Below, in pieces: positions 30,491 through 62,786 of a DNA stretch of 64,000 bases; the first letter of the stretch is position 1, and the number at the start of each line of letters is the position of its first letter. The notes beneath the pieces were generated by a model. It saw only the letters and a list, made by a program, of their open reading frames with translations. It was not told where the DNA came from and did not search any database. Position numbers and translations under genes: made by a program. The stretch comes from Promethearchaeia archaeon (GTDB lineage: Archaea; Asgardarchaeota; Lokiarchaeia; Sigyniarchaeales; SOKP01): contig JAWOCD010000090.1 of NCBI GenBank assembly GCA_046483985.1, forward strand, positions 58,294-122,293. Direction: 5' to 3'.

Positions 30491-32116
30491 TTAAGGAGAT
30501 TTTTGTTGCTCTTCCATTTTCTCTAATCTCATCTGAATGGATTCAATTGCTTTAGTAGCATTAATGTGGACAAGCCGATGAAAGTCCTTCTGTTGTCTTT
30601 TTAAAGTATCCAAGACGAGTTTATCGCCGAATTTCCCGAGAAAGTTAATGATACTCATTTTTACCTTAAAACATTCTTTAGGATTTACATCTAAATAATC
30701 GGCAAGTAATTGTTTGGCTCTGAGAAAGGTTCTTTTATCTCCCTCATCGAGATTTAAATTAAGGCTTTCTTCCCAGTTTTGTTTAAAAATATTATAAATC
30801 GCATCCACTGCGACCTTTTTCAATAACCAATAAGTAGATTTACCTTGAATTATCTGAATAAGGGGCTCTATGGTGTTTTTACTGCCAATTTTACCCAAAG
30901 CGATAATTGCATTTTTTCTGACTTCTAAATTCCGTTCTTTAATTAATTTTAGGAGAGGGTTGATAAATTGTTTCTTGCCTATCTCACCCATCAAATAGGC
31001 AACGCTTTCTTCTAATAAATAATTCCGAGAATTAATGACTTCATGAAAATATGCAAAAGAAGCATCAGAACAATTAAGATATATCTTTTTTACAGCATCC
31101 AAAATATTCCATTTGAAATCTAAATCAATATATTCATAGGTTTCGTCTTCGATGTTAAGCGCATTCAACAGCCGGGGAACACAAGACTCATCGCCTATTT
31201 TTCCTAATACCCTAATCGCCTCTCGACTAACCTCATTGTAGAGATCATCTATAAGGAAAAAGAGTTCTCTGATAATATCTTCATCTTTTATTTTAAGCTT
31301 TCCGATTAAATTGATTGCATTTTTTTTAACCAGAAATTCTCCGTCTTTTAAAATACCCACCAGTTCCTCCTTCAAATCTTCCTCAAAAGTATCAAACACT
31401 AAGAGACATTTATCGTTAAACTCCACATCTTTCTTTTCTAAACAGGTACCGATAAATTTACATAATTCATCTCGCTTGGATAAGAGTTCGGATAAAACTT
31501 CCGAATCTTCTAATACTTGTTCATTTTCATCCTTTAATGTAGGGGGGAGATCAGCCAATAGGGAGCCGATTAGTTCAATGATCGAAATTTTATGGTCCGA
31601 GCTAAAAGATTTATCTCGGATAGAATTCAGTAAAAAGGCAATACATTTTTGTGGATTCAAATCCAAAATACAATTTTTAATAAATTCTTGTATGGCTTTT
31701 GATTTGAATTGTAATTGTTGGATCAGTAATTCCAGTTCCTCTTCCTTCGGATGGATTTTTAATACAGCCTTTAAAGCATCTAACCTGACTTCCAGGTCAA
31801 TTTCCCCATTTTCCAATATCCATTTTAGCGGTTCTAAGGCTTTCTCAGTTTTGAGATTTCCCAATGATTTTGCTGCTTCACGTTTTACATCTTGATTTTT
31901 TTCGGTAATTACTATATCTTCTAAAACATCAAAGCATCTATTTTTTAGTTGGTCTGAGTTGCTGGATAGAAGTCCCAAATATTTAACTGACTTCCTCCTT
32001 AAACTAATATCCCGCTCTTTATCGATAATCTCAACTAATAAATAAACTGTATTATCTAAACCCAGTTTATCTCGTTTTTTATAAATCTCTTCGGGCAATA
32101 ATTTAGTTTTTATCAT
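30491..32116 (-). CDS. HEAT/PBS-lyase repeat protein
   Basis: Repeated VKREAAKSLGNL, VKKNAINLIGKL, VSREAIRVLGKIG, VRKNAIIALGKIG. Confidence 0.9.
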   Translation of the reverse strand: MIKTKLLPEEIYKKRDKLGLDNTVYLLVEIIDKERDISLRRKSVKYLGLLSSNSDQLKNRCFDVLEDIVITEKNQDVKREAAKSLGNLKTEKALEPLKWILENGEIDLEVRLDALKAVLKIHPKEEELELLIQQLQFKSKAIQEFIKNCILDLNPQKCIAFLLNSIRDKSFSSDHKISIIELIGSLLADLPPTLKDENEQVLEDSEVLSELLSKRDELCKFIGTCLEKKDVEFNDKCLLVFDTFEEDLKEELVGILKDGEFLVKKNAINLIGKLKIKDEDIIRELFFLIDDLYNEVSREAIRVLGKIGDESCVPRLLNALNIEDETYEYIDLDFKWNILDAVKKIYLNCSDASFAYFHEVINSRNYLLEESVAYLMGEIGKKQFINPLLKLIKERNLEVRKNAIIALGKIGSKNTIEPLIQIIQGKSTYWLLKKVAVDAIYNIFKQNWEESLNLNLDEGDKRTFLRAKQLLADYLDVNPKECFKVKMSIINFLGKFGDKLVLDTLKRQQKDFHRLVHINATKAIESIQMRLEKMEEQQKSP

Positions 32117-32180
32117 GAAAGGCGGGGTATTTTTTTCTATTCAATTTTTTTTAGTTTAAACTCATTAGACTATTAACAAA

Positions 32181-32650
32181 TAAGATCAATTAGTCTTAAA
32201 AATATTATCAAAAACCCAAAAAATCAAATGAGAGATGATCAAGATCACCAATAAATGAAGATTCTATTTGTATTTTTATCAGAAAGATTATTAATAATGA
32301 TATACATGATTAAAATTTGGAGAAATCAAAAAATTAGAGTAAATGCATTACGATGAGGGGTATGCCAAAAAGACGAATCTTCCGAACTGTATCGCGCACG
32401 GAATGTTAATGATGTCCATGGTAGGTGTTTACATTGAGGAATGGGGAGGCTCAAGAAATGGTGAGAATCTCGGTCAAATCTCGGTCAAATCGGAAACTCA
32501 AGAGGGGCGCCTCACTACTCAAGGAACCGCTTTACTTTCTATTTAATTTTTCTTAAATTATTCTTCTTCTATTTTAGAAATAAGATCAATTTATCCTAAC
32601 AAAATTATCAAAAAGTAAAAAAGTTAAGCGAAAGTTGATCAATATCCTCC
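32181..32650 (+). repeat. Imperfect 70-bp direct repeat pair (32181-32250 and 32581-32650)
   Basis: Ungapped hand alignment gives 52/70 identities, 400 bp apart; shared blocks TAAGATCAAT, ATTATCAAAAA and TGATCAA. Confidence 0.7.
32343..32546 (+). pseudogene. MaoC-like dehydratase remnant
   Basis: HYDEGYAK...IAHGML hydratase motif without the N-terminus; the middle is missing at an 11-bp tandem duplication AATCTCGGTCA x2 (32466-32487). Confidence 0.7.
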
Positions 32651-32882
32651 ATATTTCTTTTTTTATATAAAGGTTAAAACTATGCTACTTTTTTCGATAA
32701 ATAATAATAAATATATATAGGAAACACATAAATATCTTAATATGTAATAATAGAATCTCAAAAAATTAAGGATTCTGATACCTACTTTAGTTAAAATATC
32801 TGAACTCCTTAAACAAAATTAAAAAAATATGGAAAAAGCGATATTTATAAATCTATTAAAAGAGGTGGATGTGTTAAAAAAA

Positions 32883-34820
32883 ATGCAAAATGTAACAAAT
32901 CATCGGATTGGAGTCTACTGTTGTCAATGAGGAATAAACATTAAAGGCAAAATTGACACCGCAGAATTAGCAGAATATGGGAAATCTTTTGATGAAGTCG
33001 TTATATCCAAGACGCACCCGTTCTTATGCACTGAAAGCGGTCAAAACGAAATAATAGAAGATATTGAGGAGAAAAATCTCACCGCAATTGTTGCAACGGC
33101 TTGAACCCCACGAACCCATGAACCAATTTACAGAGACACAATTTCAAAAACGAATATTAGTCCTTATCATTTTGAATTGGTTAATGTCCGAGAACATTGT
33201 AGTTGGGTCACAGAATCAAGGGAAGAAGCGATGGAAAAGGCAAAAGGATTATTACGAGGCGGTATCGAACGCGTCAAACTTCTAGACATTGTGCCCATAA
33301 GAACGGTGCCTATTGAAAGATCCACATTGGTGGTGGGTGGTGGAATTGCCGGAATGAATGCTGCCTTAGATCTTGCAAATCAAGGAATCAAAGTCTATCT
33401 GGTGGAAAGAAAAACAACAATTGGGGGCCGTATGGCTCAGCTGGACCGCACATTTCCCACGGATGATTGCAGTATCTGAATTTGCGGGCCGAAAATGTTG
33501 GAAGTCAACAGGCATGAAAACATCGAAATTATAAGTTATGCAGAAGTTAAGGAAGTAAGCGGATATGTGGGTAATTACGAAGTTACCGTTGAAAAAAAGC
33601 CGAGATATGTGACAGACGATTGTAATGGATGCGGAGCTTGTGCAGATGTCTGTCCCATCTACACGGAAAACTATTTTGATGAACATTTAGGAGTACGCAA
33701 AACCATTGATATTGCCTTCGGGCAAGCTGTTCCTTTTCTCTATGATATTCATCGGGACTCATGTGTTGAATGTTTTAGTTGTGTGGATGAATGCGAACTG
33801 GATGCGATAGATTTCTCCCAAAAAGCTGAGGATATCCACATAAAGGTGGGATCAATTATTATTGCGACGGGATGGGACATCTATGAACCTTATGGCGAAT
33901 ATGGTTATGGCGAATATGAAAATGTGGTTCATCAAGCCCAATTAGAACGAATGTTAGCCCCAAACGGACCACTAGGAGGTCATGTACATCGGGTTTCGGA
34001 CGAGAAGACGTTGGAGGAAATTGTGTTTATTCAATGTGTGGGAAGTCGGCAAAAAGGAAGGACCTATTGTAGCGGAATCTGTTGCATGTTGGCATTAAAG
34101 AATGCAAAATTACTAAAAGAAGAATTTCCTGAGGCAAATATCACTATTTGCTATATTGATGTGAGAACAAATGAGAAGGGTTTTGAAGAATACTATCAGC
34201 GTGCAAAAGAATCGGGTATTCGTATGATAAGAGGAAAAGTGGGAGATATAAAAGAGGATCCGGAAACAAAGTGCGTAGATATTAGAGTGTACTCATCTTT
34301 AACAGACGAGATCATCCATATTGATGCAGATTTGCTCATTCTTTCTTCGGCCGTCTTACCTTCTAATGGCACCGAACAAATTGCTTCAGTATTAAATTTG
34401 GATGTCGATACGAACGGATTTTTAACCGAATCGCACTTTGGTTTAATGCCCCAAGAAACTAAAACAAAAGGGATATTTATTGCAGGGTTTGCTCAAGGCC
34501 CAAAAAATATTGCTTATTCGGTTTCCCAAGCACGAGCTGCTGCAAGTAAAGTGGCTGAATTAACGTCTCCAGGAGAAATTGATTTAGAACTTATTATCGC
34601 AGAAATAGATGAGGAACATTGTATTGGGTGTGGCAGATGCGAGCGGGAATGCCCGAATAGTGCAATCAGTATTGAGGTTGATAGCGCAATAGTTGATGAA
34701 ATAAACTGTGAGGGGTGCGGTATCTGTGCTACATGTTGTCCAACTGAAGCTATTGATATTCGCTACTTTAGAGATGAGCAATTATATGCGCAAATTGAAG
34801 GAATAATTGGAGGGGTTTAA
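32883..34820 (+). CDS. hdrA: Heterodisulfide reductase subunit A, selenoprotein with three in-frame UGA (Sec) codons, ~645 aa
   Basis: One frame from ATG 32883 (alternative in-frame GTG 32871 after GAGGTG) to TAA 34820, with TGA at 32928 (YCCQ-U-GINI), 33102 (ATA-U-TPRTHE) and 33477 (DDCSI-U-ICGPK). Each matches Cys in the paralogue at 39303 (ICHCGINI, VASCSPRTHE, LDCSLCILAPK). Confidence 0.95.
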
Positions 34821-34824
34821 AACT

Positions 34825-35280
34825 ATGGACAATAATTACCAAATATTGTGTTTTGCTTGCTTGAAATGAGGTTATTCAGCTGCAGATTTAGCAGGCGTAT
34901 CCAGAATGAAATATCCCTCTGCCGTGAAGATAGTGAAGGTTCTCTGTACAGGAAGAGTGGATGCGAAATATATACTTTATGCGATCAAAGCTGGTGCCGA
35001 CGGTGTAATGGTGGTGGGATGAAGACCTCACGAGTGCCAATTTAAAAAAGGGAACTTCACAGCCCAAAAACACGTGGATTTTGTTAACCGTATTCTGGAA
35101 AGAAGAGGATTTGGAAGCCATAGGGTTAATATGTACTGGCTGAGCTCTGCGGAAGCTGAGAAGCTGGTTCAAAGCGTTGAGGATGCTTACGAAAAAGTGA
35201 AAATGGCTGGTATCAATCCGATAAAAGCTAAAAAACGGAATCAAGAAAAAGAAAAAGAAACGGCTCCCTTTGTAGGATGA
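34825..35280 (+). CDS. mvhD: MvhD/VhuD [2Fe-2S] subunit, selenoprotein with two in-frame UGA codons, 151 aa
   Basis: MDNNYQILCFACLK-U-GYSAADLAG (TGA 34867), CTGRVD, GADGVMVVG-U-RPHEC (TGA 35020); the paralogue at 42409 has CCNWCSY and ITGCHIGDC. Confidence 0.95.
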
Positions 35281-35334
35281 AGCTTATAAAAAAATAGTAG
35301 TTATAAGCGGACCAACCTTGCAATGGGTGGGAGT
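35263..35334 (+). promoter_or_regulatory. Eukaryote-like SECIS element
   Basis: ATGAA (35277-35281) / GGAC (35309-35312) core; perfect 8-bp helix GCTTATAA/TTATAAGC; A-rich loop AAAAATAGTAG; lower helices TTGTAGG/CCTTGCAA and CTCCC/GGGAG; directly 3' of two UGA-containing genes. Confidence 0.9.
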
Positions 35335-35394
35335 GTAAAAATTTACATTTAAAATAATGGATTTATCAAGACAAAGGAAATAAGGAAAAGATAT

Positions 35395-36894
35395 ATGGTT
35401 CAAAAAATAGAAAAAGACGTATTTTCGGATTTTTCTTCAAAAGAATTAATGGATGCAACTTATTGGGCTGCCCAAAACTTCCAAATTAGGGGTTTTTATG
35501 AAGCAAAGGAAGACATTCTTAAATGCGGCAAGTTTTCTGAAGAGCAATTCTTTGAGATTTTTGATACAATGGTTGATGCCGAAACTGAGCGGAAGATCAT
35601 CTTGGCACGATTGCGGAAATTTAATGATTTACTTTCTCTGAACCAGATTGTTGATCGGTTTCCGGAATTTCCACGGGAACAAGTGATTCGCAATGTGATC
35701 TATCTAAAAGAACAAGGATTTATAGAAGAGATTGAAGAAATCAAAACCAAAAAGATTATGAAAAAAGTAAAAGGTGAGGAGAAGGAAATAGAGTCAAAGC
35801 AATACTTCTATAAATATCAACCAAAAAGTCTTTCCGACGATCATTACGAGCATTACTTTACCCCCGTTTCACTGATATATGAAGCCGGCGTCTGCTCTAA
35901 TTGTGGCTGGTGTTCTTCTATTTGTCCGGTCGATGCCGTTAAGATGGATCCTGAGACTCTAGAGATAGATGATGATTTATGCATTAAATGCGGCTTGTGT
36001 TATTCAGTCTGTCCCCGATCCTTTTCTATCGACCGAGTGTATGAGAATATAGCACATTTGGATTCAGCCATCACATTTTCGGAAAAAGTCGGAGCCTATT
36101 TAAATATGTATTCTGGAACCACATCTAAAAAGCAAATTAAAGAGGTTCGACAGGACGGCGGGATTGTTACCTCGCTATTTGCATATTTATTGGAGGAAGA
36201 CTTAGTAGATGCCATTATTGCGGTTCAGCACTCAAATGATCCTTGGCGACCCGAACCCGTTATCGTGGAGACTATCTCAAATCTCTATAAAACAGCAGGC
36301 ACGAAATATGCAAACGCGCCAGTATTAAGCATTATTGATGCAGCTCAAGAGTATGAAAGGATTGCTATAGTGGGTGTTCCGTGTATGGTAAAAGCTCTCT
36401 ATAAAGGTGCGCTTTACCCCATGGGATCACCCTTTTTTAAGAACATAAAATATATCATCGGGCTCTTTTGTATGGAATCCTTTTCCTATGCAGCGATTGT
36501 TGATTTAATACAAGAAAAATTCGACCAAGACATCAGCCAACTGACGAAGATGAATATCGATAAGGGAAAATTCATAATAAATTTACAATCTGGAGAGCAA
36601 ATGACAGTTCCCTTAAAAGAAATCAATTCTTATGCACGGGACCAATGTCATTTCTGCGAGGATCTTACTTCCGAATACGCCGACATCTCAGTAGGCTCAA
36701 TCGGATCTCCGGGGGGAAGATCGACGGTAATTACCAGAACCGAGAATGGAGAAGACATCTATCAAGGTGCCATAAGCAAGGGATACATTGATTCAAAACC
36801 AATAGATAAGGTTAAACCTGGTCAATTTCTTGTAGAAAAAATCGCGGGTATAAAACGAAAGAAATGTAAAACGATTAATTTAACAAAAAACTAG
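35395..36894 (+). CDS. FrhB/FdhB-family protein with an N-terminal helical/winged-helix extension
   Basis: CSNCGWCSSICP, CIKCGLCYSVCP, QDGGIVT, AGTKY, VGVPC, IGLFCME, ADISVGSIG. Confidence 0.9.
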   Translation: MVQKIEKDVFSDFSSKELMDATYWAAQNFQIRGFYEAKEDILKCGKFSEEQFFEIFDTMVDAETERKIILARLRKFNDLLSLNQIVDRFPEFPREQVIRNVIYLKEQGFIEEIEEIKTKKIMKKVKGEEKEIESKQYFYKYQPKSLSDDHYEHYFTPVSLIYEAGVCSNCGWCSSICPVDAVKMDPETLEIDDDLCIKCGLCYSVCPRSFSIDRVYENIAHLDSAITFSEKVGAYLNMYSGTTSKKQIKEVRQDGGIVTSLFAYLLEEDLVDAIIAVQHSNDPWRPEPVIVETISNLYKTAGTKYANAPVLSIIDAAQEYERIAIVGVPCMVKALYKGALYPMGSPFFKNIKYIIGLFCMESFSYAAIVDLIQEKFDQDISQLTKMNIDKGKFIINLQSGEQMTVPLKEINSYARDQCHFCEDLTSEYADISVGSIGSPGGRSTVITRTENGEDIYQGAISKGYIDSKPIDKVKPGQFLVEKIAGIKRKKCKTINLTKN

Positions 36895-36902
36895 AAAGGG
36901 TT

Positions 36903-38030
36903 TTGAATATGGTTAAAACTTTTGAGGATCTAATCCATGAGGTTCATGAAAAAAATATTTGTCAACAATGTGGAGGCTGTGTAAGTTTCTGCAGCTCGGC
37001 AGAATTTGATGTTATCGGTTTCAAAGACCCATTTGAGCCCCCAGAATATATAAATGAAGATCAATGCCTTGAATGCGGGATATGTTATTATATCTGCCCT
37101 CAAACCCACGTATTGGATTCCGAATTAAATCAAGCATTTAATTTCTCTGGCTATGATTCCATGCTAATCGGTTCCTATAAAGATGTATATTCATGTCAAG
37201 CAACAGATAAAAAATTCCTTAGTCATGGAACAGATGGGGGGGTGGTAAATTCCGTCATAAATTACTTGATTGAAAAGAAGAATATAGATGGAGCTATTGT
37301 TTCCAAAACAAAATCTCCGTTTTCACGAGAAGCAACTTTTGCCTCTTCTAAAGAAACCTTACTTAATGCCTCGGGTGCTCAATTTAACATTTCTCCTCAT
37401 TTAAATGAGATTCAAAAATTCAGTACATATCCTCATACTATTCCCGAATTAAACCATTATAAGTTTAAAAAATTAGCAGTGGTAGGCACACCGTGCCAGT
37501 TATATACCATTAGATGTATGCAAGAATTAGGCGTAACCCCTTCAGAAAATATTGGAATCTGTTTGGGGTTATTTTGTTACGAAAATTTTTGTTTTGATAA
37601 GTCCCAGATTGAAAAATTTGAGAGAGATTTCAATATCGAGTATGAGGATATTGAAAAAATTAATATCAAGAAAGATGTTGTGTTTAAACTTAAAGATGAG
37701 GGACAAGGAGGAAAAACTATCCATATCCCTTTTAATCATCTTAAGGATTATATGAGAGATGCATGTAAAGCATGTAATGACTTCCCTAATATTTATTCCG
37801 ATATTTCCTTTGGAGGATTGGGCTCTCCTGAGAAATATACCACAGTAATTCCGAGAACTGATATAGGGATGGAATTATTTCAAGAAGTCCTCAATGCGGG
37901 AATTATCGAATGTAGAAATGTCGACCAATCCGTTAAGGAAAAAATGCTCAGTACGATATCCCAATTTTCTAAGAAAAAAATTCAACGTAAGTCAGAATTT
38001 ATGAAAACTATTAAATCAGATGGTGAATAA
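36903..38030 (+). CDS. FrhB/FdhB-family protein
   Basis: CQQCGGCVSFC, CLECGICYYICP, TDGGVV, VGTPCQ, LGLFCYE, SDISFGGLG. Confidence 0.9.
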   Translation: MNMVKTFEDLIHEVHEKNICQQCGGCVSFCSSAEFDVIGFKDPFEPPEYINEDQCLECGICYYICPQTHVLDSELNQAFNFSGYDSMLIGSYKDVYSCQATDKKFLSHGTDGGVVNSVINYLIEKKNIDGAIVSKTKSPFSREATFASSKETLLNASGAQFNISPHLNEIQKFSTYPHTIPELNHYKFKKLAVVGTPCQLYTIRCMQELGVTPSENIGICLGLFCYENFCFDKSQIEKFERDFNIEYEDIEKINIKKDVVFKLKDEGQGGKTIHIPFNHLKDYMRDACKACNDFPNIYSDISFGGLGSPEKYTTVIPRTDIGMELFQEVLNAGIIECRNVDQSVKEKMLSTISQFSKKKIQRKSEFMKTIKSDGE

Positions 38031-39303
38031 CATAACGCAAACAGAACAAAAAGCAGAAAAAACACTCCAATTATCAGAAACTAACAGCACTTTGAGCAAA
38101 ATTTATCAACCGGATTTAAAAGATTTATTATATGCATGCTATCAATGTGCACGATGCACGGGTGTTTGTCAGCTAAGCAAGGTTCAAGACTTTAAACCAA
38201 GTCGGATTATTCAAAAAATACTTGAAGGCTTTGAAGAAAAGGTATTAGAAAGTGGAGTATTATGGAATTGTCTTATGTGTAATTCATGCTTGCAAGATTG
38301 TCCGGAAGAAATTAATTTTGCGGATATCGTTCGAATGGCGAAATATAAAATGGTGAATGAGTATACTCACAAACCAGAACAATATACCGCACATAAAGGA
38401 ATTTATCCTATGATTTCCGAGATTATGAGTAATGAATCTATTGAACCTAAGAGAAATCTTAATTGGATTCCGGATTCTTGCTCTATTGCTGAAAAAGGGA
38501 ATATCTTATATCATGTCGGATGCCTTCCCTATTTTAAATTTGAGTTTGAAGGAATGGATTCCATCGGAATAAGTACAATTAAACTACTTTCAAAAATCGA
38601 AAAAGAACCAATCGTTGTGTTAGAAAATGAAAATTGTTGCGGCCATGATTTATACTGGGGGCAAGGAAACTTTAAGGCATTTATCAAATTGGCAAGAAAG
38701 AATATTGAAAATTTTGAGAAAGCCGGGATATCCACTATTATTACCACATGCGCCGAAGGATATAGAACGTTTAAAGTAGACTACCCAATGATGTTCGAGG
38801 ATTTTAATGAAAACTACAAGGTAATGCACATTATTGAATATTTATATGATAATTGGAAGAAGGGAAAAATCGAATTCCGAACTCCCGAAGATATGAACGA
38901 AAAGGTTAGTTTTAGCTTTCATGATCCTTGCAGAATAAGTCGATTTTTGCCTAAGACAAATAAAATTATGGATAAAGTGCGGGAGATATTCTCTTCTTTA
39001 AGTTCTTCAAACTATGACTTTAGGGAAATGGAACATCATAAGGAAAATGCGCTGTGCTGCGGTGTCAGTTCCTGGATGAATTGTAATGAACGCTCCAAAG
39101 CAATGCGATATAAACGTCTTTTAGAGGCAAAGGAAGTTGGAGAATGGATGATAACTACTTGTCCAAAATGCATAATGCATTTTAAATGCCTTCAAGAGGA
39201 TTTTGATGATGTTTCTTCTTTGAAGATCAAGGATTTTACGGAATTTATTTATTCTCTTGTCAAAGTTATTCCGAACGGAAAAGATAAGGAGGATGGGGAA
39301 TAA
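38020..39303 (+). CDS. HdrD/GlpC-like Fe-S oxidoreductase (HdrC-like ferredoxin plus two CCG domains)
   Basis: CYQCARCTGVC, CLMCNSCLQDCP, ENCCG, TTCAEG, FHDPC, LCCG, TTCPKC. Confidence 0.9.
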   Translation: MVNNITQTEQKAEKTLQLSETNSTLSKIYQPDLKDLLYACYQCARCTGVCQLSKVQDFKPSRIIQKILEGFEEKVLESGVLWNCLMCNSCLQDCPEEINFADIVRMAKYKMVNEYTHKPEQYTAHKGIYPMISEIMSNESIEPKRNLNWIPDSCSIAEKGNILYHVGCLPYFKFEFEGMDSIGISTIKLLSKIEKEPIVVLENENCCGHDLYWGQGNFKAFIKLARKNIENFEKAGISTIITTCAEGYRTFKVDYPMMFEDFNENYKVMHIIEYLYDNWKKGKIEFRTPEDMNEKVSFSFHDPCRISRFLPKTNKIMDKVREIFSSLSSSNYDFREMEHHKENALCCGVSSWMNCNERSKAMRYKRLLEAKEVGEWMITTCPKCIMHFKCLQEDFDDVSSLKIKDFTEFIYSLVKVIPNGKDKEDGE

Positions 39304-42300
39304 TGGAAGGGGCTGTGCTCGTTATTGGAGGAGGAATAGCAGGAATACAAGCTTCATTGGATTTGACTGAACTGGGTTTTAAAGTATATTTAGTAGAAAA
39401 ATCCCCCTCTATTGGGGGTCGAATGGCACAGTTAGATAAGACATTCCCCACTTTAGACTGTTCCTTATGTATCCTCGCTCCGAAAATGGTAGAGGTCTAC
39501 CGGAATCCTAATATCGAGTTATTGGCGTATCATGAAGTTAAAAAGGTAAAAGGAAAAGTGGGTAATTTCAAGGTAACCGTTCTTAAAAAACCGCGATATG
39601 TGGACGAATCTAAATGCAAGGGTTGTGGAGATTGCGCAAAAAAATGCCCAAAGATAGAAGTACCTAATATTTTTGATATGAACTTAGGTAAGAGAAAATC
39701 GATTTATATACCTTTTCCTCAAGCCGTTCCTCCGGTCTATTTGATTGACCCGGAACTCTGCTTAAAATTAACTAAGGATGTCTGTGGCGTTTGCAGTAAG
39801 GTTTGTAAGGCAGATGCAATCGATTATGATCAAAAACTTGAAGAATTTGACATTAACGTGGGGGCAATAATAGTTGCTACTGGCTTTGATATGTATGGGG
39901 AGGAACTTAGCTCAAGATGGGGCTATCAGTTTGAAAACGTGCTCAATGGGCTTGAATATGAGAGGATGTTATGTGCTTCTGGCCCGTTTGGGGGTCATGT
40001 ACTCAGACCGAGCGATGAAAAAGAGCCAGAAACGATAGCTTTCATCCAATGTGCCGGATCAAGGGATTTGCACGAGGGCGTTCCCTATTGTTCCAGTGTA
40101 TGTTGTACTTATATAGCCAAAGAAGCAATTATTACGTCTGAACATGCCGCAGAAACAAGCTGTTATATTTTCCATCATGATATTCGTGCTTATGGAAAGA
40201 ATTTTTATGAGTTCACCCAAAGGGCGAAAAATGAATATGGGGTCAATTACATCTCCACAAAAATTAATAAAATAAGGGAAGACCCCGAAACTGAAGATCT
40301 ATTGATTCAATTCGAGAATTTAAAAAATGGAACATTTGATACATTTCGAGCCAATTTAGTGGTATTGGCCACTCCCTTGGTTCCTTCGAAGGGAACGAGA
40401 CAATTAGCTGAGATATTAGATGTAGAATTGGATGAATATGGCTTTTTTAAAGAAAAGAGTTATTTTCAGAAAACATTGTCCTCGAGACAGGGAATTTTTC
40501 TTTGCGGTTTCTGTCAAGGACCAATGGATATTCCAGAAACGGTTGCCAATGCAAGCGGAGTCGCAGCAGAAGTTGGCTCCCTATTAGCCCCCGAGAGATT
40601 TTCCCAAATAAAAGAAAAAGAGATAGAGACTCCCGAAAAGATTGTAAAAGTTACTGATACCCCTCGTATTGGTGTCTTGATCTGTCATTGTGGGATAAAT
40701 ATTGGTAAATATGTGAATGTACCTGAAGTAGTGGATTACATCCAGCAATTACCAAGTGTGGTCCAATGTGAGTCAAACATGTATTCTTGTTCTAGTGATT
40801 CCCAAAGTCGTATTAAAGAATTGATAAAAGAAAATGATTTGAATAGATTTATTGTTGCTTCATGTAGCCCTAGAACCCATGAATCTTTATTTCAAGAAAC
40901 GTGTCAAGAAGCGGGACTGAATAAATACTTATTTGAAATGGTAAATATAAGAGATCAATGCTCTTGGGTTCACATGAATGATATTACTGCCGCCACCCAA
41001 AAGGCAAAGGATTTAGTCAAGATGGCTGTTGCCAAAGCAAGATTATTGAAGCCGCAGAAAGAAGAAACCTTGACTATTACCCCTGCTGCTTTGGTAATTG
41101 GAGGAGGTATTTCGGGGCTCACCGTTGCACTAAATGTAGCCAATCAAGGATATCAAGTTTATCTGGTAGAAAAAGAGGAAGAACTGGGTGGTAATCTAAA
41201 GCACTTACATCACTTATATCCTCATAATACAGACGCTTCAGAGTATTTGGACACGGTTCTTAAAAAAGTATCTGAGAAAGACGAAATTAAACTGATGCTT
41301 GATTGTTATATTGAAGAGATCAAGGGCTATTTAGGAAACTATGAGGTTTCAGTGGCTATATCAAATAAGAAAAAGGAGACTTTTAATGTTGGCACTATTA
41401 TTGTCGCGACTGGGGCCAAAGAGTTTAAGCCGGAAGAGATATTCCACTATGATGGGCAAACTGTGATTACTCAAATGGAGTTAGAAGAAAAACTGAAAGA
41501 TAACCCCACTACATGCTTAAAATCGGTAAATCGAATTACTATGATCTTATGCGTTAATGCCCGACAGAAAGAAGGCAATGGTATAACCTACTGTTCAAAT
41601 GTATGTTGTGCGGTTGCGATAAAAAATATTGAACTTCTTAAGAAATTAAAGCCTGATCTTGAAATTGTTGTATTATATCGAGACATTCAGATGGCTAAGA
41701 AAGAATTTGAGAACTATTATCGGGAGCGACGAAAACATGCAATGTTTATCAAATATAACTTAGATAATATGCCATCAATAACTAAAATTGATGGAAAGCA
41801 CGACATGTTTCAAATAAAGGTTGAAGATAATAACTTACAGGATGAAATAACTTATACCTCTGATTTAATTATTTTATCCACTCCCTTAGTTCCTGCTGAT
41901 AATATGGATGAACTGGCAAAAATGTTAAAAGTCCCCTTAGATAGTTCTGGATTTTTCCTGGAGGCTCATGTGAAATTGAGACCTTTAGATTTTGCAACAG
42001 ATGGCATCTTTTTATGCGGATGCGCACATTGGCCAAAAAATATTCAAGATTCTATTGCTCAAGCAGATGGGGCGGCAGGAAGGGCATGTCGATTTTTGAG
42101 TGCTGGTGAAATTACTACCTCAGGATTGATTGCTGAAGTTGATAAAATCTTATGCATTGGATGTGGAAAATGTGAGGAGGTTTGTCCATACAATGCGGTA
42201 AAATTAAGAGAAATTTCAAGCGACTTTGAAGAAATAAGTATTTTGATAGAGAAATCTGAAATAAATTCTGCATTATGTAAAGGATGCGGAACTTGTGCTG

Positions 42301-42434
42301 CTACTTGTCCTGTAGGAGCGATTTCCGTAAAACATTACGATTTTGACCAAATTAATGCTATGATAGATACCTATTTAACCGAAAAAATACCCACAGAGGG
42401 AGGAGAAGATGTCCAAATCGAAAAAACAACCTAA
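39303..42434 (+). CDS. hdrA: Large HdrA-family flavoprotein with two FAD domains, all-cysteine form
   Basis: Two GGGIxG FAD motifs, IGGRMAQLDKTFPTLDC, internal RIGVLICHCG domain, EAHVKLRP, C-terminal ferredoxin. Confidence 0.93.
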   Translation: MEGAVLVIGGGIAGIQASLDLTELGFKVYLVEKSPSIGGRMAQLDKTFPTLDCSLCILAPKMVEVYRNPNIELLAYHEVKKVKGKVGNFKVTVLKKPRYVDESKCKGCGDCAKKCPKIEVPNIFDMNLGKRKSIYIPFPQAVPPVYLIDPELCLKLTKDVCGVCSKVCKADAIDYDQKLEEFDINVGAIIVATGFDMYGEELSSRWGYQFENVLNGLEYERMLCASGPFGGHVLRPSDEKEPETIAFIQCAGSRDLHEGVPYCSSVCCTYIAKEAIITSEHAAETSCYIFHHDIRAYGKNFYEFTQRAKNEYGVNYISTKINKIREDPETEDLLIQFENLKNGTFDTFRANLVVLATPLVPSKGTRQLAEILDVELDEYGFFKEKSYFQKTLSSRQGIFLCGFCQGPMDIPETVANASGVAAEVGSLLAPERFSQIKEKEIETPEKIVKVTDTPRIGVLICHCGINIGKYVNVPEVVDYIQQLPSVVQCESNMYSCSSDSQSRIKELIKENDLNRFIVASCSPRTHESLFQETCQEAGLNKYLFEMVNIRDQCSWVHMNDITAATQKAKDLVKMAVAKARLLKPQKEETLTITPAALVIGGGISGLTVALNVANQGYQVYLVEKEEELGGNLKHLHHLYPHNTDASEYLDTVLKKVSEKDEIKLMLDCYIEEIKGYLGNYEVSVAISNKKKETFNVGTIIVATGAKEFKPEEIFHYDGQTVITQMELEEKLKDNPTTCLKSVNRITMILCVNARQKEGNGITYCSNVCCAVAIKNIELLKKLKPDLEIVVLYRDIQMAKKEFENYYRERRKHAMFIKYNLDNMPSITKIDGKHDMFQIKVEDNNLQDEITYTSDLIILSTPLVPADNMDELAKMLKVPLDSSGFFLEAHVKLRPLDFATDGIFLCGCAHWPKNIQDSIAQADGAAGRACRFLSAGEITTSGLIAEVDKILCIGCGKCEEVCPYNAVKLREISSDFEEISILIEKSEINSALCKGCGTCAATCPVGAISVKHYDFDQINAMIDTYLTEKIPTEGGEDVQIEKTT

Positions 42435-42849
42435 ATCCAAAGAGGCATTCAATCCCGAGATCTTAGTCTTTTGCTGTAATTGGTGTAGCTATGCTGGAGC
42501 AGATTTAGCAGGAGTTTCACGCTTTCAGTATCCGCCTAATATCAGAATTATCCGGGTGATGTGCTCGGGAAGAGTTGATCCCTCATTTATTATAAGAGGT
42601 TTGAGAGAGGGTGCCGATGGTGTCTTAATTACGGGATGCCATATAGGCGATTGTCATTATATTTCGGGAAATGAGCACGCAAGAGACAGATTCACACGCT
42701 TATATGAAATCATTATCAAACAATTAGGTATAGACAAGAAAAGAGTTCGACTGGAATGGATTAGTGCTTCTGAAGGAAAACGTTTTGCCGTATTAATTAC
42801 AGAATTCACAGACCAAATTAAAGAGTTAGGTCCCTTTTTGGGAAAGTAG
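42409..42849 (+). CDS. mvhD: MvhD [2Fe-2S] subunit, cysteine form
   Basis: FCCNWCSYAGADLAG, MCSGRVDP, GADGVLITGCHIGDCHY, WISASEG. Confidence 0.96.
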   Translation: MSKSKKQPKSKEAFNPEILVFCCNWCSYAGADLAGVSRFQYPPNIRIIRVMCSGRVDPSFIIRGLREGADGVLITGCHIGDCHYISGNEHARDRFTRLYEIIIKQLGIDKKRVRLEWISASEGKRFAVLITEFTDQIKELGPFLGK

Positions 42850-62751: not shown

Positions 62752-62786
62752 CTTTTTCATTCCAAGAAGTCAAATAAATGCAGTGG

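Follow-up and report, generated by a model that had tools for sequence, protein, structure and literature searches.

Two adjacent genes of a Promethearchaeia archaeon (assembly GCA_046483985.1, contig JAWOCD010000090.1) code for proteins of the HdrA and VhuD families, and both carry in-frame TGA codons. This raises the question of whether these codons are read as selenocysteine (Sec) and, if so, which RNA element directs their recoding. We examined the locus within a 64,000-nt window of the contig, and all positions given below are numbered from the start of this window. The explanation we consider very probable is that the locus is a Lokiarchaeia-type HdrA–VhuD selenoprotein pair, wherein five UGA codons specify Sec and one lokiSECIS element is shared by the two genes. 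From this arrangement we infer that Sec is inserted at the five sites, that both genes are carried on one mRNA, and that the SECIS acts across the cistron boundary.

In-frame TGA codons of hdrA and vhuD

The hdrA gene occupies positions 32883–34820 of the forward strand and comprises 645 codons followed by a TAA stop. When TGA is translated as U, the frame is open from 32829 to 34820 and contains exactly three such codons, at 32928, 33102, and 33477. The resulting residues are U34, U92, and U217 when counted from 32829, which are residues 16, 74, and 199 when counted from the ATG at 32883. This ATG is supported as the start because ten orthologs carry an ATG at the same position after a conserved GAGGTG, and because three orthologs have a TAA within the 32829–32882 extension. 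Over its full length, the product can be aligned with solved HdrA chains (9sfi_A, E 1.5e-197; 5odc_A, E 2.8e-188), and its residues 24–661 align with 9sfi_A and four other solved HdrA chains. Its Pfam matches are Fer4 and Pyr_redox, its top NCBIfam matches are HdrA2/HdrA, and it has the four-domain HdrA architecture, including the FAD site, the Fe-S Cys motifs, and the D-C-x-x-C/U pair. A structural model of the N-terminal domain (pLDDT 89.5) matches the N-terminal domains of HdrA proteins with Z scores of 16–18 and an rmsd of 1.3 Å.

The first TGA codon of hdrA (32928–32930, forward strand) lies in a C-x-U motif of the N-terminal domain. The residue is Cys in the Cys-type paralogs and aligns to Cys13 of 9sfi_A, and of the 29 other HdrA loci with coverage there, 25 have TGA at this codon. 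The second TGA (33102–33104), in the motif A-U-TPR, aligns to Cys71 of 9sfi_A and is replaced by a Cys codon in every other HdrA of the same genome. This codon is TGA in all 14 close orthologs with contig coverage there, and also in three more distant paralog loci (L034, L041, and L042). The third TGA (33477–33479) forms the canonical D-C-x-x-U site beside the FAD. In the Methanococcus HdrA chain 9sfi_A, the aligned residue is the X that denotes Sec197, in agreement with the proposal that this codon occupies the methanococcal DCSxU position, and TGA is found there in 32 of 32 other loci examined. Among the relatives searched, TGA is common at positions 34 and 92. The N-terminal motifs had originally been described as CxxU and A-U-TPR. 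The conserved form of the former is C-x-U (C32-Q-U34 in the numbering from 32829); the CxxU reading relies on C31, a residue that is V or I in paralogs.

The vhuD gene (mvhD; FlpD family) spans 34825–35280 of the forward strand, with 151 codons and a TGA stop. Its product matches Pfam FlpD (E 5.6e-43), has VhuD as its top NCBIfam match, and aligns to chain 9sfi_K (E 9.7e-37). The frame from 34825 to 35289 contains TGA codons at 34867, 35020, and 35278. The first (34867–34869), in a C-x-x-U motif, shares its alignment column with the first Sec (X) of 9sfi_K, the Methanococcus VhuD, and with Cys16 of the MvhD chain 9sw2_D; all relatives examined have TGA here. The second (35020–35022), in a G-U-x-P motif, corresponds to the second X of 9sfi_K, and 29 of the 32 loci examined have TGA at this codon. 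The third is the stop codon of vhuD, and its UGA is located inside the AUGA core of the SECIS element described below. This sixth in-frame UGA of the pair is too close to the SECIS for recoding, and would for this reason terminate vhuD.

The junction between the two cistrons (34809–34824) consists of a Shine–Dalgarno-like GGAGGGG inside the end of hdrA, the hdrA stop codon TAA at 34818–34820, and 4 nt that separate this stop from the vhuD ATG at 34825. The same order of a GGAGG-type motif, TAA, and a short spacer is found again at the junctions of orthologs. Moreover, hdrA ends with TAA or TAG, never TGA, in 32 of 32 loci with an assembled gene end. The narrow gap, the embedded Shine–Dalgarno motif, and the strict avoidance of UGA at the hdrA stop are all consistent with one transcript for both cistrons.

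Farther downstream, Cys-type paralogs at 39303–42849 of the forward strand encode a 1043-amino-acid fused HdrA-like protein and an MvhD. All five candidate Sec positions are Cys in this pair as well as in four further Cys pairs encoded by the genome, and Cys is found at these positions across nine other paralog loci of the same genome. Thus, the reading of both frames and the alignment of paralogs agree with the original prediction on the three TGAs of hdrA, the two TGAs of mvhD, the 4-nt gap, and the placement of all five codons on columns that are Cys in paralogs of the same cluster. The comparison of Cys and Sec codons among HdrA relatives that had been proposed as a check reveals recurrent TGA at all three hdrA positions.

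Sec machinery and other readings of the TGA codons

If the five codons specify Sec, then the genome should encode the corresponding machinery, a point on which the original prediction had been made to depend. A tRNA-Sec was found with a score of 61 bits (ARAGORN call SeC/tca), and the adjoining gene encodes SepSecS (487.8 bits). ARAGORN reported no tRNA within the 64-kb window. A SelB-like protein scores 235 bits, versus 137 for EF-1alpha, and a PSTK-like protein scores 158 bits over the full model length; SelB and PSTK are the respective best families, with both scores below the NCBIfam strict cut-offs. A SelD gene is also present and itself contains one TGA, as expected for a Sec-containing SelD. 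All components of the pathway are therefore represented in the genome. The three UGAs of hdrA and the two of vhuD would be read by an archaeal/eukaryotic-type Sec pathway that employs tRNA-Sec, PSTK, SepSecS, SelD, and a SelB/EFSec-like factor.

A different possibility is that the TGA codons are real stops, in which case the genes would be pseudogenes or truly split, and the protein would be produced only as fragments, if it were produced. Public gene calls list hdrA segments 33495–34820 and 33177–33479 as proteins, and TGA often serves as a stop codon here, as it ends 290 of the 1837 long ORFs of the genome (16%). However, the TGAs fall on invariant Cys columns that are also the Sec columns of the solved Methanococcus HdrA and VhuD, and they are kept at the same codons down to 65% identity while the remaining frame is intact. 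In orthologs of 65–78% identity from 14 other genomes, every TGA at positions 34, 92, and 217 that is covered by contigs is retained, and there is no other frame damage inside hdrA. The same orthologs have the TAA stop of hdrA and a Shine–Dalgarno-like GGAGG at the junction. Those with an assembled 3′ flank and an element of the same type as that described below also have a SECIS at the vhuD stop. Some of the genomes searched that encode a Sec-type HdrA are complete in one contig. Furthermore, the fragments would divide the N-terminal domain, which bears the ligands, from the domain that holds the flavin, and the genome has the full Sec pathway as well as a SECIS with covariation. These findings make split genes or pseudogenes extremely improbable.

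The expectation that automated annotation would fragment both genes holds for hdrA, which is represented by the two public pieces noted above; for vhuD, two guessed fragments were absent in exact look-ups. Because public gene calls break hdrA at Sec codons, the HdrA content in metabolic reconstructions of Asgard archaea can be miscounted. Logan contigs from four salt-lake metatranscriptome runs of one study cover only 33322–34570 of hdrA, plus one 34-nt low-complexity piece. The TGA at 33477 is present in contigs of two of these runs without any difference, although RNA libraries can contain DNA. None of the contigs from RNA libraries bridges the hdrA–vhuD junction or the SECIS.

It is also conceivable that the UGAs are read as Cys, Trp, or another standard residue, either by SECIS-independent suppression or through a local change of the code. 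Cys is tolerated at all five sites, as the Cys-type paralogs demonstrate, and the replacement of Sec by Cys under selenium limitation is known in Methanococcus (PMC11097638). However, genes of this genome with in-frame TGAs have lokiSECIS elements directly at their 3′ side, and tRNA-Sec and SepSecS are present. The fact that TGA ends 16% of long ORFs also indicates that this codon has not been reassigned. We therefore assign readthrough with a standard amino acid hardly any probability. Judged from sequence comparisons, the five UGA codons most likely encode selenocysteine.

The lokiSECIS element and the search for a second signal

A eukaryote-like, type I lokiSECIS is located at 35263–35334 of the forward strand, after vhuD. 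Its lower helix is formed by 35263–35268 and 35329–35334, and the AUGA core is at 35277–35280. Helix II pairs 35281–35289 with 35301–35309, which gives a nine-position stem that is followed by GA at 35310–35311. The apical loop of 11 nt (35290–35300) starts with AAAAA. The predicted fold has a free energy of −19.5 kcal/mol (z −2.2), and the consensus fold of orthologs is concordant. A covariance model (R1) was made from 29 elements of the lokiSECIS type, and with filters off this model scores the element at 50.9 bits (E 1.4e-12) in a search of both strands from 31500 to 36500. The seed sequences of R1 were picked with a pairing filter, and therefore the figure of 92% paired positions is partly circular, whereas the covariation and the constant position of the element are not.

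Covariation was evaluated on an alignment of the 46-nt core (A2), which replaced a MAFFT alignment with 73-nt flanks that was mis-registered for one paralog group. Double changes are present at all nine pairs of helix II among 29 homologous elements, and the covariation score is 1.02, compared with 0.25 in shuffled alignments and 0.15–0.24 when the pairing is slid. The lokiSECIS pattern matches once in the 64-kb window (35277–35311, with an exact fit to the geometry) and four times in the 4-Mb genome, versus one or two matches in shuffled sequences. In 26 of 32 loci, an element with 9 bp and a loop of 11–12 nt is positioned between −1 and +30 nt relative to the vhuD stop. The Rfam SECIS models give no match at the gathering threshold in the whole window, nor at E ≤ 10 in the region 32400–35600; two weak matches to other Rfam families, a viral leader pseudoknot and an lncRNA, were dismissed as chance.

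Both R1 and the pattern scan uphold the prediction of a single convincing SECIS at this location, beyond the hdrA TAA and ∼2.3 kb past the first UGA. The element is 257 to 2349 nt downstream from the five Sec codons. This kink-turn RNA, which begins at the vhuD stop, would be the sole recoding signal of the locus. It would act over a long range and across the cistron boundary on a transcript that carries both genes.

If this hypothesis is correct, then no second signal should be located within or upstream of hdrA, as the original prediction maintained. With filters off, the next forward-strand match of R1 inside hdrA–vhuD in the 31500–36500 search scores 7.8 bits, and no match on this strand other than the lokiSECIS itself is above 8 bits. 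The second-best match overall (18.3 bits, 32125–32170) was rejected since it is on the opposite strand with four of nine pairs broken, upstream of a divergent HEAT-repeat gene. For each Sec UGA, the 70 nt that follow show no better folding than shuffled sequences (z −0.4 to +1.7). Relaxed scans produced four candidates inside hdrA, at 32992, 33742, 33883, and 34774, which were rejected on the basis that their positions are not conserved among 16 orthologs. The candidate at 34774 is unique to this genome, and one ortholog lacks any candidate. By the R1 type I model, the relaxed scans, and the folds of the UGA flanks, no second element was found.

A recoding signal of another type could nevertheless belong to hdrA itself, such as a type II or archaeal-type element in the leader or reading frame, or one supplied in trans, and in this case the SECIS after vhuD would not be shared. 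R1 covers only type I elements, and SelD genes of Lokiarchaeia are reported with a different SECIS form (PMC4989117). In addition, the four relaxed candidates have an AUGA-hairpin-GA arrangement, with that at 34774 just before the stop, and ∼770 nt of AT-rich DNA separate the divergent HEAT-repeat gene from hdrA. However, none of the in-ORF candidates is found at the same position in orthologs, no UGA is followed by local structure beyond chance, and the Rfam E-value search of 32400–35600 produced nothing relevant. The complete avoidance of UGA as the hdrA stop in 32 loci is expected if the downstream SECIS also acts on hdrA. Moreover, no second element was found in two published surveys (PMC4989117, PMC11227280). 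A separate signal for hdrA is accordingly unlikely, though less so than the two alternatives discussed above, and a shared lokiSECIS remains the preferred explanation.

Two FrhB-like genes (35395–38030, forward strand; Pfam FrhB_FdhB_N/C) lie directly downstream from the SECIS, and in 14 orthologous loci of close relationship the SECIS is likewise followed, on the same strand, by an FrhB homolog. These genes may be part of the same operon as hdrA–vhuD. Since FrhB genes are always next on the same strand, the SECIS may be intercistronic and act from the middle of an operon rather than from a 3′ UTR. A gene for an HdrD-like CCG protein (38020–39303, forward strand) precedes the Cys-type paralogs. 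In this window, the neighbors of the locus are these FrhB-like and HdrD-like genes, and no hydrogenase or HdrBC genes are adjacent.

Placement of the predicted Sec residues and relation to known systems

By alignment, U217 represents the canonical Sec/Cys position in the D-C-x-x-U pair next to the bifurcating FAD, and U15 and U66 of VhuD correspond to the two Sec sites known from methanococcal VhuD. U34 and U92 fall on Cys positions that are conserved in the N-terminal Fe-S domain of HdrA, which is mobile. In recent cryo-EM work, the D-C-x-x-U pair of HdrA reportedly binds an unidentified ligand or forms a selenylsulfide. From these placements, selenium would be located where two mobile electron-carrying modules dock near the flavin. 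VhuD (U15/U66) and the HdrA N-terminal domain (U34/U92) may be the two modules, which would dock alternately at the D-C-x-x-U pair. We tentatively suggest, as a possibility that falls short of being probable, that the five Sec residues line one gated electron-transfer junction rather than being scattered.

The N-terminal sites of HdrA mirror those of VhuD in spacing and motifs, with C-T-[GE] ∼25 residues before [GA]-U-x-P in both. Given this resemblance, the selenium positions of the two modules would be homologous. A profile–profile comparison with hhalign gave only a weak match between the HdrA N-terminal domain and VhuD (E 0.028, probability 1.8%), in which C67 is aligned to C41 and U92 to U66; the same pairing is seen in a nonsignificant BLAST match. 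The fold search lists one chain per entry, and MvhD chains of HdrA entries could not appear in it.

Like bacterial in-ORF SECIS elements, which depend on SelB, the system proposed here recodes UGA to Sec. In the bacterial case a hairpin follows the codon, whereas none is present after any of the five UGAs of this locus. The SelB-like protein of this genome has 470 amino acids and matches only positions 1–272 of the 581-position bacterial model, leaving the C-terminal half of that model unmatched.

The lokiSECIS resembles the eukaryotic type I SECIS (RF00031) in the AUGA...GA kink-turn core and in the unpaired A residues at the start of the apical loop. Its presumed long-range action from the 3′ side on several UGAs per message is also reminiscent of eukaryotic multi-UGA mRNAs such as that of SELENOP. 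However, helix II is shorter here (nine positions), the UGAs are spread across two cistrons, and the threshold of the Rfam model is not reached. Thus, the element is similar to eukaryotic SECIS in core and loop but is not a member of this family by the Rfam SECIS_1 model. PMC4989117 notes that SBP2 was not detected in Lokiarchaeota and that SelP has two SECIS elements.

The HdrA and VhuD proteins of Methanococcus and Methanocaldococcus (9sfi, PMC13518236) are alike in fold, domain order, and hdrA–vhuD synteny, and their Sec sites match U217 (Sec197) and U15/U66. The methanococcal HdrA has one Sec with Cys at both N-terminal positions, in contrast to the three Sec predicted for the present hdrA. 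Methanococcal SECIS elements are of the archaeal type and only those of VhuD carry an AUGA core, and a SECIS shared by HdrA and VhuD is a configuration of Lokiarchaeota, according to PMC4989117. A 3′ UTR SECIS of Methanococcus works over 520–679 nt with no strict distance limit (PMC9622424).

The closest known systems are the HdrA.n–VhuD.n pairs of Lokiarchaeota. PMC4989117 (Mariotti et al. 2016) describes Loki HdrA proteins with up to four Sec at five positions, and HdrA–VhuD pairs in which one lokiSECIS, located after VhuD, is always shared and serves up to six UGAs over ∼2 kb. In these pairs HdrA always ends with UAA or UAG, and a stop UGA inside the AUGA core is also described. The 2024 survey of Asgard selenoproteomes (PMC11227280) extends the same HdrA–VhuD architecture across Asgard genomes. 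These publications bear out that Lokiarchaeota use eukaryote-like 3′ SECIS elements and have Sec-containing HdrA and VhuD. They lend no support to the notion that additional N-terminal Sec residues in HdrA and recoding across a cistron boundary are unusual, as multi-Sec HdrA and a SECIS shared across the boundary are both published there.

The present locus shares with the Lokiarchaeota pairs the tandem same-strand genes with a minimal gap, a multi-Sec HdrA that includes the canonical site, and a two-Sec VhuD. It also shares the single element after VhuD (AUGA, 9 bp, an 11-nt A-led loop, and GA) with none elsewhere, an hdrA that ends with UAA or UAG, and tolerance of a UGA stop only at the SECIS. 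There is no difference in kind, and this pair represents the 34/92/217 combination of Sec positions.

A single SECIS that serves several UGAs across two cistrons and >2 kb would be among the most striking recoding arrangements known, and it bears on the origin of eukaryotic SECIS; it was first described in 2016. The locus opens no new question. It is a clean, well-conserved example, with three predicted Sec in HdrA, two in VhuD, a stop codon in the SECIS core, and a conserved Shine–Dalgarno junction, and its chief use would be as a template for a reporter or proteomics test. A vhuD stop formed by the UGA of the AUGA core has its counterpart in PMC4989117, which reports such a stop for VhuU.1.

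In-frame TGA codons and the Sec pathway

With TGA read as selenocysteine (U), the hdrA frame on the forward strand is open from 32829 to the TAA at 34818–34820 and includes TGA codons at 32928, 33102, and 33477. The vhuD frame begins on the same strand with an ATG at 34825, four bases past this TAA, and carries TGA codons at 34867, 35020, and 35278, the last being its stop. The five internal TGAs and the 4-nt gap claimed originally are both seen, and public gene calls break hdrA at its Sec codons, as had been anticipated. The hdrA product is a full-length HdrA with ferredoxin and pyridine-nucleotide-disulphide-oxidoreductase domains (Pfam); HdrA2/HdrA are its top NCBIfam matches, and five solved HdrA chains align over its residues 24–661 (E values 1e-197 to 1e-169). 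The vhuD product belongs to the FlpD family of MvhD/VhuD proteins (Pfam E 5.6e-43; top NCBIfam match VhuD) and is matched by chain 9sfi_K at E 1e-36. Ten hdrA orthologues have an ATG aligned with 32883 after a conserved GAGGTG, and three have TAA codons within the counterpart of 32829–32882. These observations support the ATG at 32883, the start predicted originally, as the true one. HdrA residue numbers used here count from 32829.

All five TGAs fall on cysteines of paralogues, as the original prediction held. Cys occupies every one of these columns in the Cys-type HdrA/MvhD pair at 39303–42849 and in four further Cys-type pairs of the genome. Moreover, HdrA U217 lines up with Sec197 (written as X) of the solved Methanococcus HdrA, and VhuD U15 and U66 align with both X residues of the solved Methanococcus VhuD. 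Three more Sec-type pairs in the genome each have TGA at HdrA positions 34 and 217 and at both VhuD positions. When 40 genomes of the same family or order were searched, 39 had HdrA matches with E no higher than 1e-100; one to five in-frame TGAs occur in most of the matches listed. Orthologous loci in 14 other genomes (65–78% identity) retain TGAs 34, 92, and 217 wherever contigs cover them; across all loci examined, five HdrA columns carry a TGA (34, 67, 92, 217, and 315).

TGA is not a reassigned codon in this genome, since it terminates 290 of 1837 long ORFs. The TGA at 33477 is crossed, with an identical codon, by contigs from two salt-lake metatranscriptome runs, and is therefore not an error of the genome assembly. 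These observations confirm an hdrA–vhuD pair with five in-frame TGAs. Its interpretation as a selenoprotein pair is right in substance, with Sec insertion and a bicistronic mRNA predicted from the sequence.

The hdrA stretch 33322–34570 is matched, with zero to two differences per contig, by Logan contigs of four metatranscriptome runs from salt lakes, all belonging to one study; a DNA run from freshwater sediment contains about half of the sampled words. The organism, or a nearly identical strain, may thus be transcriptionally active in the sediment of saline lakes; DNA carry-over could also explain these matches.

The Sec machinery, whose presence was a check on the original prediction, is found in the genome. 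We observed a tRNA-Sec (61 bits; called SeC with anticodon tca by ARAGORN), a directly adjoining SepSecS gene (488 bits), a SelB-like GTPase (235 bits versus 137 for EF-1alpha), a PSTK-like protein (158 bits over the full model length), and a SelD with one in-frame TGA. Machinery genes cluster at 62760–69118 of one contig (C17), where tRNA-Sec and SepSecS share a strand, the former ending 92 nt ahead of the latter, and the SelB-like gene is encoded ∼4 kb upstream in the opposite orientation.

A single SECIS downstream from vhuD

A strict lokiSECIS pattern (AUGA, nine positions with at least eight pairs, an 11-nt loop starting AA, nine partner positions, and GA) has one match in the 64-kb window, at 35277–35311. 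Genome-wide there are four matches, versus one or two in shuffled genomes. The region 35263–35334 (+) folds into a lower helix, internal loop, core, helix II, and apical loop (−19.5 kcal/mol, z −2.2). In 26 of 32 loci of relatives, a like element lies between −1 and +30 nt of the vhuD stop; the others have weaker candidates with longer loops.

In a 46-nt alignment of 29 cores, double changes occur at all nine pairs of helix II, and the covariation score is 1.02 versus 0.25 for shuffles and 0.15–0.24 for slid partners. The core-adjacent pair is non-canonical in 17 of the 29 cores, which is expected beside a kink-turn. Because the seeds were chosen with a pairing filter, the fraction paired is partly circular, whereas pair-type diversity and the constant position are not. 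A type I lokiSECIS covariance model built from this alignment gives the window element 50.9 bits (E 1.4e-12). Some HdrA–VhuD elements (L047:325-370, − strand, and those at L016, L021, L032, and L034), found in one paralogue of this genome and in several relatives, have an AUGA…AA core instead of AUGA…GA with otherwise identical geometry, a variant reported in a 2024 Asgard survey (PMC11227280).

On the plus strand within hdrA–vhuD, the model gives no match above 7.8 bits, and shuffled sequences fold at least as well as the 70 nt past each Sec UGA. Inside hdrA, four relaxed AUGA-hairpin-GA candidates were rejected, as their positions are not repeated in orthologues. A second model match at E < 0.01 (32125–32170, minus strand, 18 bits) has four of nine pairs broken and lies upstream of a divergent HEAT-repeat gene; it is most likely a chance match in AT-rich DNA. 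The claim of a single SECIS survives each of these tests (model search, UGA-flank folding, and candidate conservation), which would miss a differently built element.

Probable recoding across cistrons and proposed placement of the Sec residues

Distances from the five Sec codons to the downstream AUGA core are 2349, 2175, 1800, 410, and 257 nt. At the gene junction, a GGAGG-type Shine-Dalgarno sequence in the hdrA 3′ end, the TAA, 4 nt, and the vhuD ATG are conserved in orthologues, which points to one mRNA with coupled translation of the two genes. In the most likely mechanism, a UGA sufficiently far 5′ of the SECIS would be read as Sec in whichever cistron it occurs, whereas a UGA at the SECIS would terminate translation. 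This rule fits the stop codons: none of the 32 loci uses TGA to end hdrA, which closes with TAA or TAG instead, and a TGA stop of vhuD, where used, falls within the SECIS or immediately beside it; in this locus, as in four orthologues, it is the UGA of the AUGA core. In 14 close orthologous loci the SECIS is followed by a same-strand gene for an FrhB-like protein, so the element may be intercistronic in a longer operon. In Methanococcus, a 3′ UTR SECIS acts over 520–679 nt with no strict need for a particular spacing, and also works directly behind the coding region (PMC9622424). We found no experimental test in the literature of SECIS action across a cistron boundary.

The original prediction regarded parts of this arrangement as unusual, but every such feature is already published; the phenomenon is remarkable but known. 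Mariotti et al. (2016; PMC4989117) describe Lokiarchaeota VhuD with two Sec residues, HdrA always directly upstream and with UAA or UAG as its invariable stop, a single lokiSECIS (AUGA, 9-bp stem, 11-nt loop with an A-rich start) solely after VhuD, and, in VhuU.1, a stop UGA inside the AUGA core. Relative to that description, the window locus is a further well-formed member with no defining feature missing. The 2024 survey likewise found hdrA and frhD/vhuD always adjacent, almost always with one common eSECIS-like structure (PMC11227280).

In solved complexes, the space between the bifurcating FAD and the [2Fe-2S] cluster of MvhD is occupied by MvhD Cys16 and an HdrA Cys pair (Cys202/Cys205 in Methanothermobacter, Cys and Sec197 in Methanococcus), and the pair binds an unidentified ligand or makes a selenylsulfide (PMC13580544; PMC13518236). 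In an earlier reading, the partner protomer has its N-terminal [4Fe-4S] cluster completed by Cys197 (PMC9012536). By alignment, HdrA U217 is the Cys205/Sec197 position, VhuD U15 is the Cys16 position, and VhuD U66 lies ahead of the residues that match the His68/Asp71 site. HdrA U34 and U92 occupy conserved Cys positions of the mobile N-terminal domain, the second half of which aligns weakly with VhuD (C67 with C41, U92 with U66). This weak pairing agrees with the label MvhD-like, reportedly given to the domain in a 2017 crystal-structure paper. The selenium would lie around the docking site of two mobile electron carriers, VhuD and the HdrA N-terminal domain, close to the flavin.

Further selenoprotein candidates and an apparently fused HdrA-like protein

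Elsewhere in the genome, on other contigs, three paralogues of ∼150 aa without a Pfam family (L062:1501-1956, −; L057:1047-1493, +; L061:1037-1489, +) share an invariant adjacent pair of in-frame TGAs in motifs D-A-D-U-U, G-C-U-U, or S-S-S-U-G-U-U. All three have a lokiSECIS model match (32–42 bits) no more than ∼10 nt from where the matched region ends. The family has matches in 33 of the 40 related genomes, each with two or three TGAs and with no Cys-only form among them, and is absent from the families listed in the 2024 survey (PMC11227280). Two similar-looking ORFs of ∼310–320 aa (L051:579-1496, +, contig C97; L060:1528-2493, −, contig C37) have hydrophobic N- and C-terminal segments and no Pfam family match. 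They carry in-frame TGAs, one near the N terminus, which may precede the true start, and the other in a motif such as D-T-U-C; one ORF ends 4 nt before a SECIS match and the other overlaps one (48 and 33 bits). They could be further unlisted selenoproteins. A 96-aa ORF (L052:1190-1477, +, contig C8), with an N-terminal hydrophobic segment, one in-frame TGA (G-G-U-S-T-V), and no Pfam match, is followed by a 48-bit lokiSECIS 23 nt past its stop.

Within the window, a 1043-aa HdrA-like protein (39303–42434, +) appears to be two complementary halves fused into one chain. The first retains the D-C-x-x-C pair and lacks the N-terminal Fe-S domain, whereas the second has the N-terminal-domain Cys residues and D/E at the pair positions. 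Fused or tandem HdrA proteins of ANME archaea show the same complementarity (PMC9012536), but the order of the halves in the window protein is the opposite.
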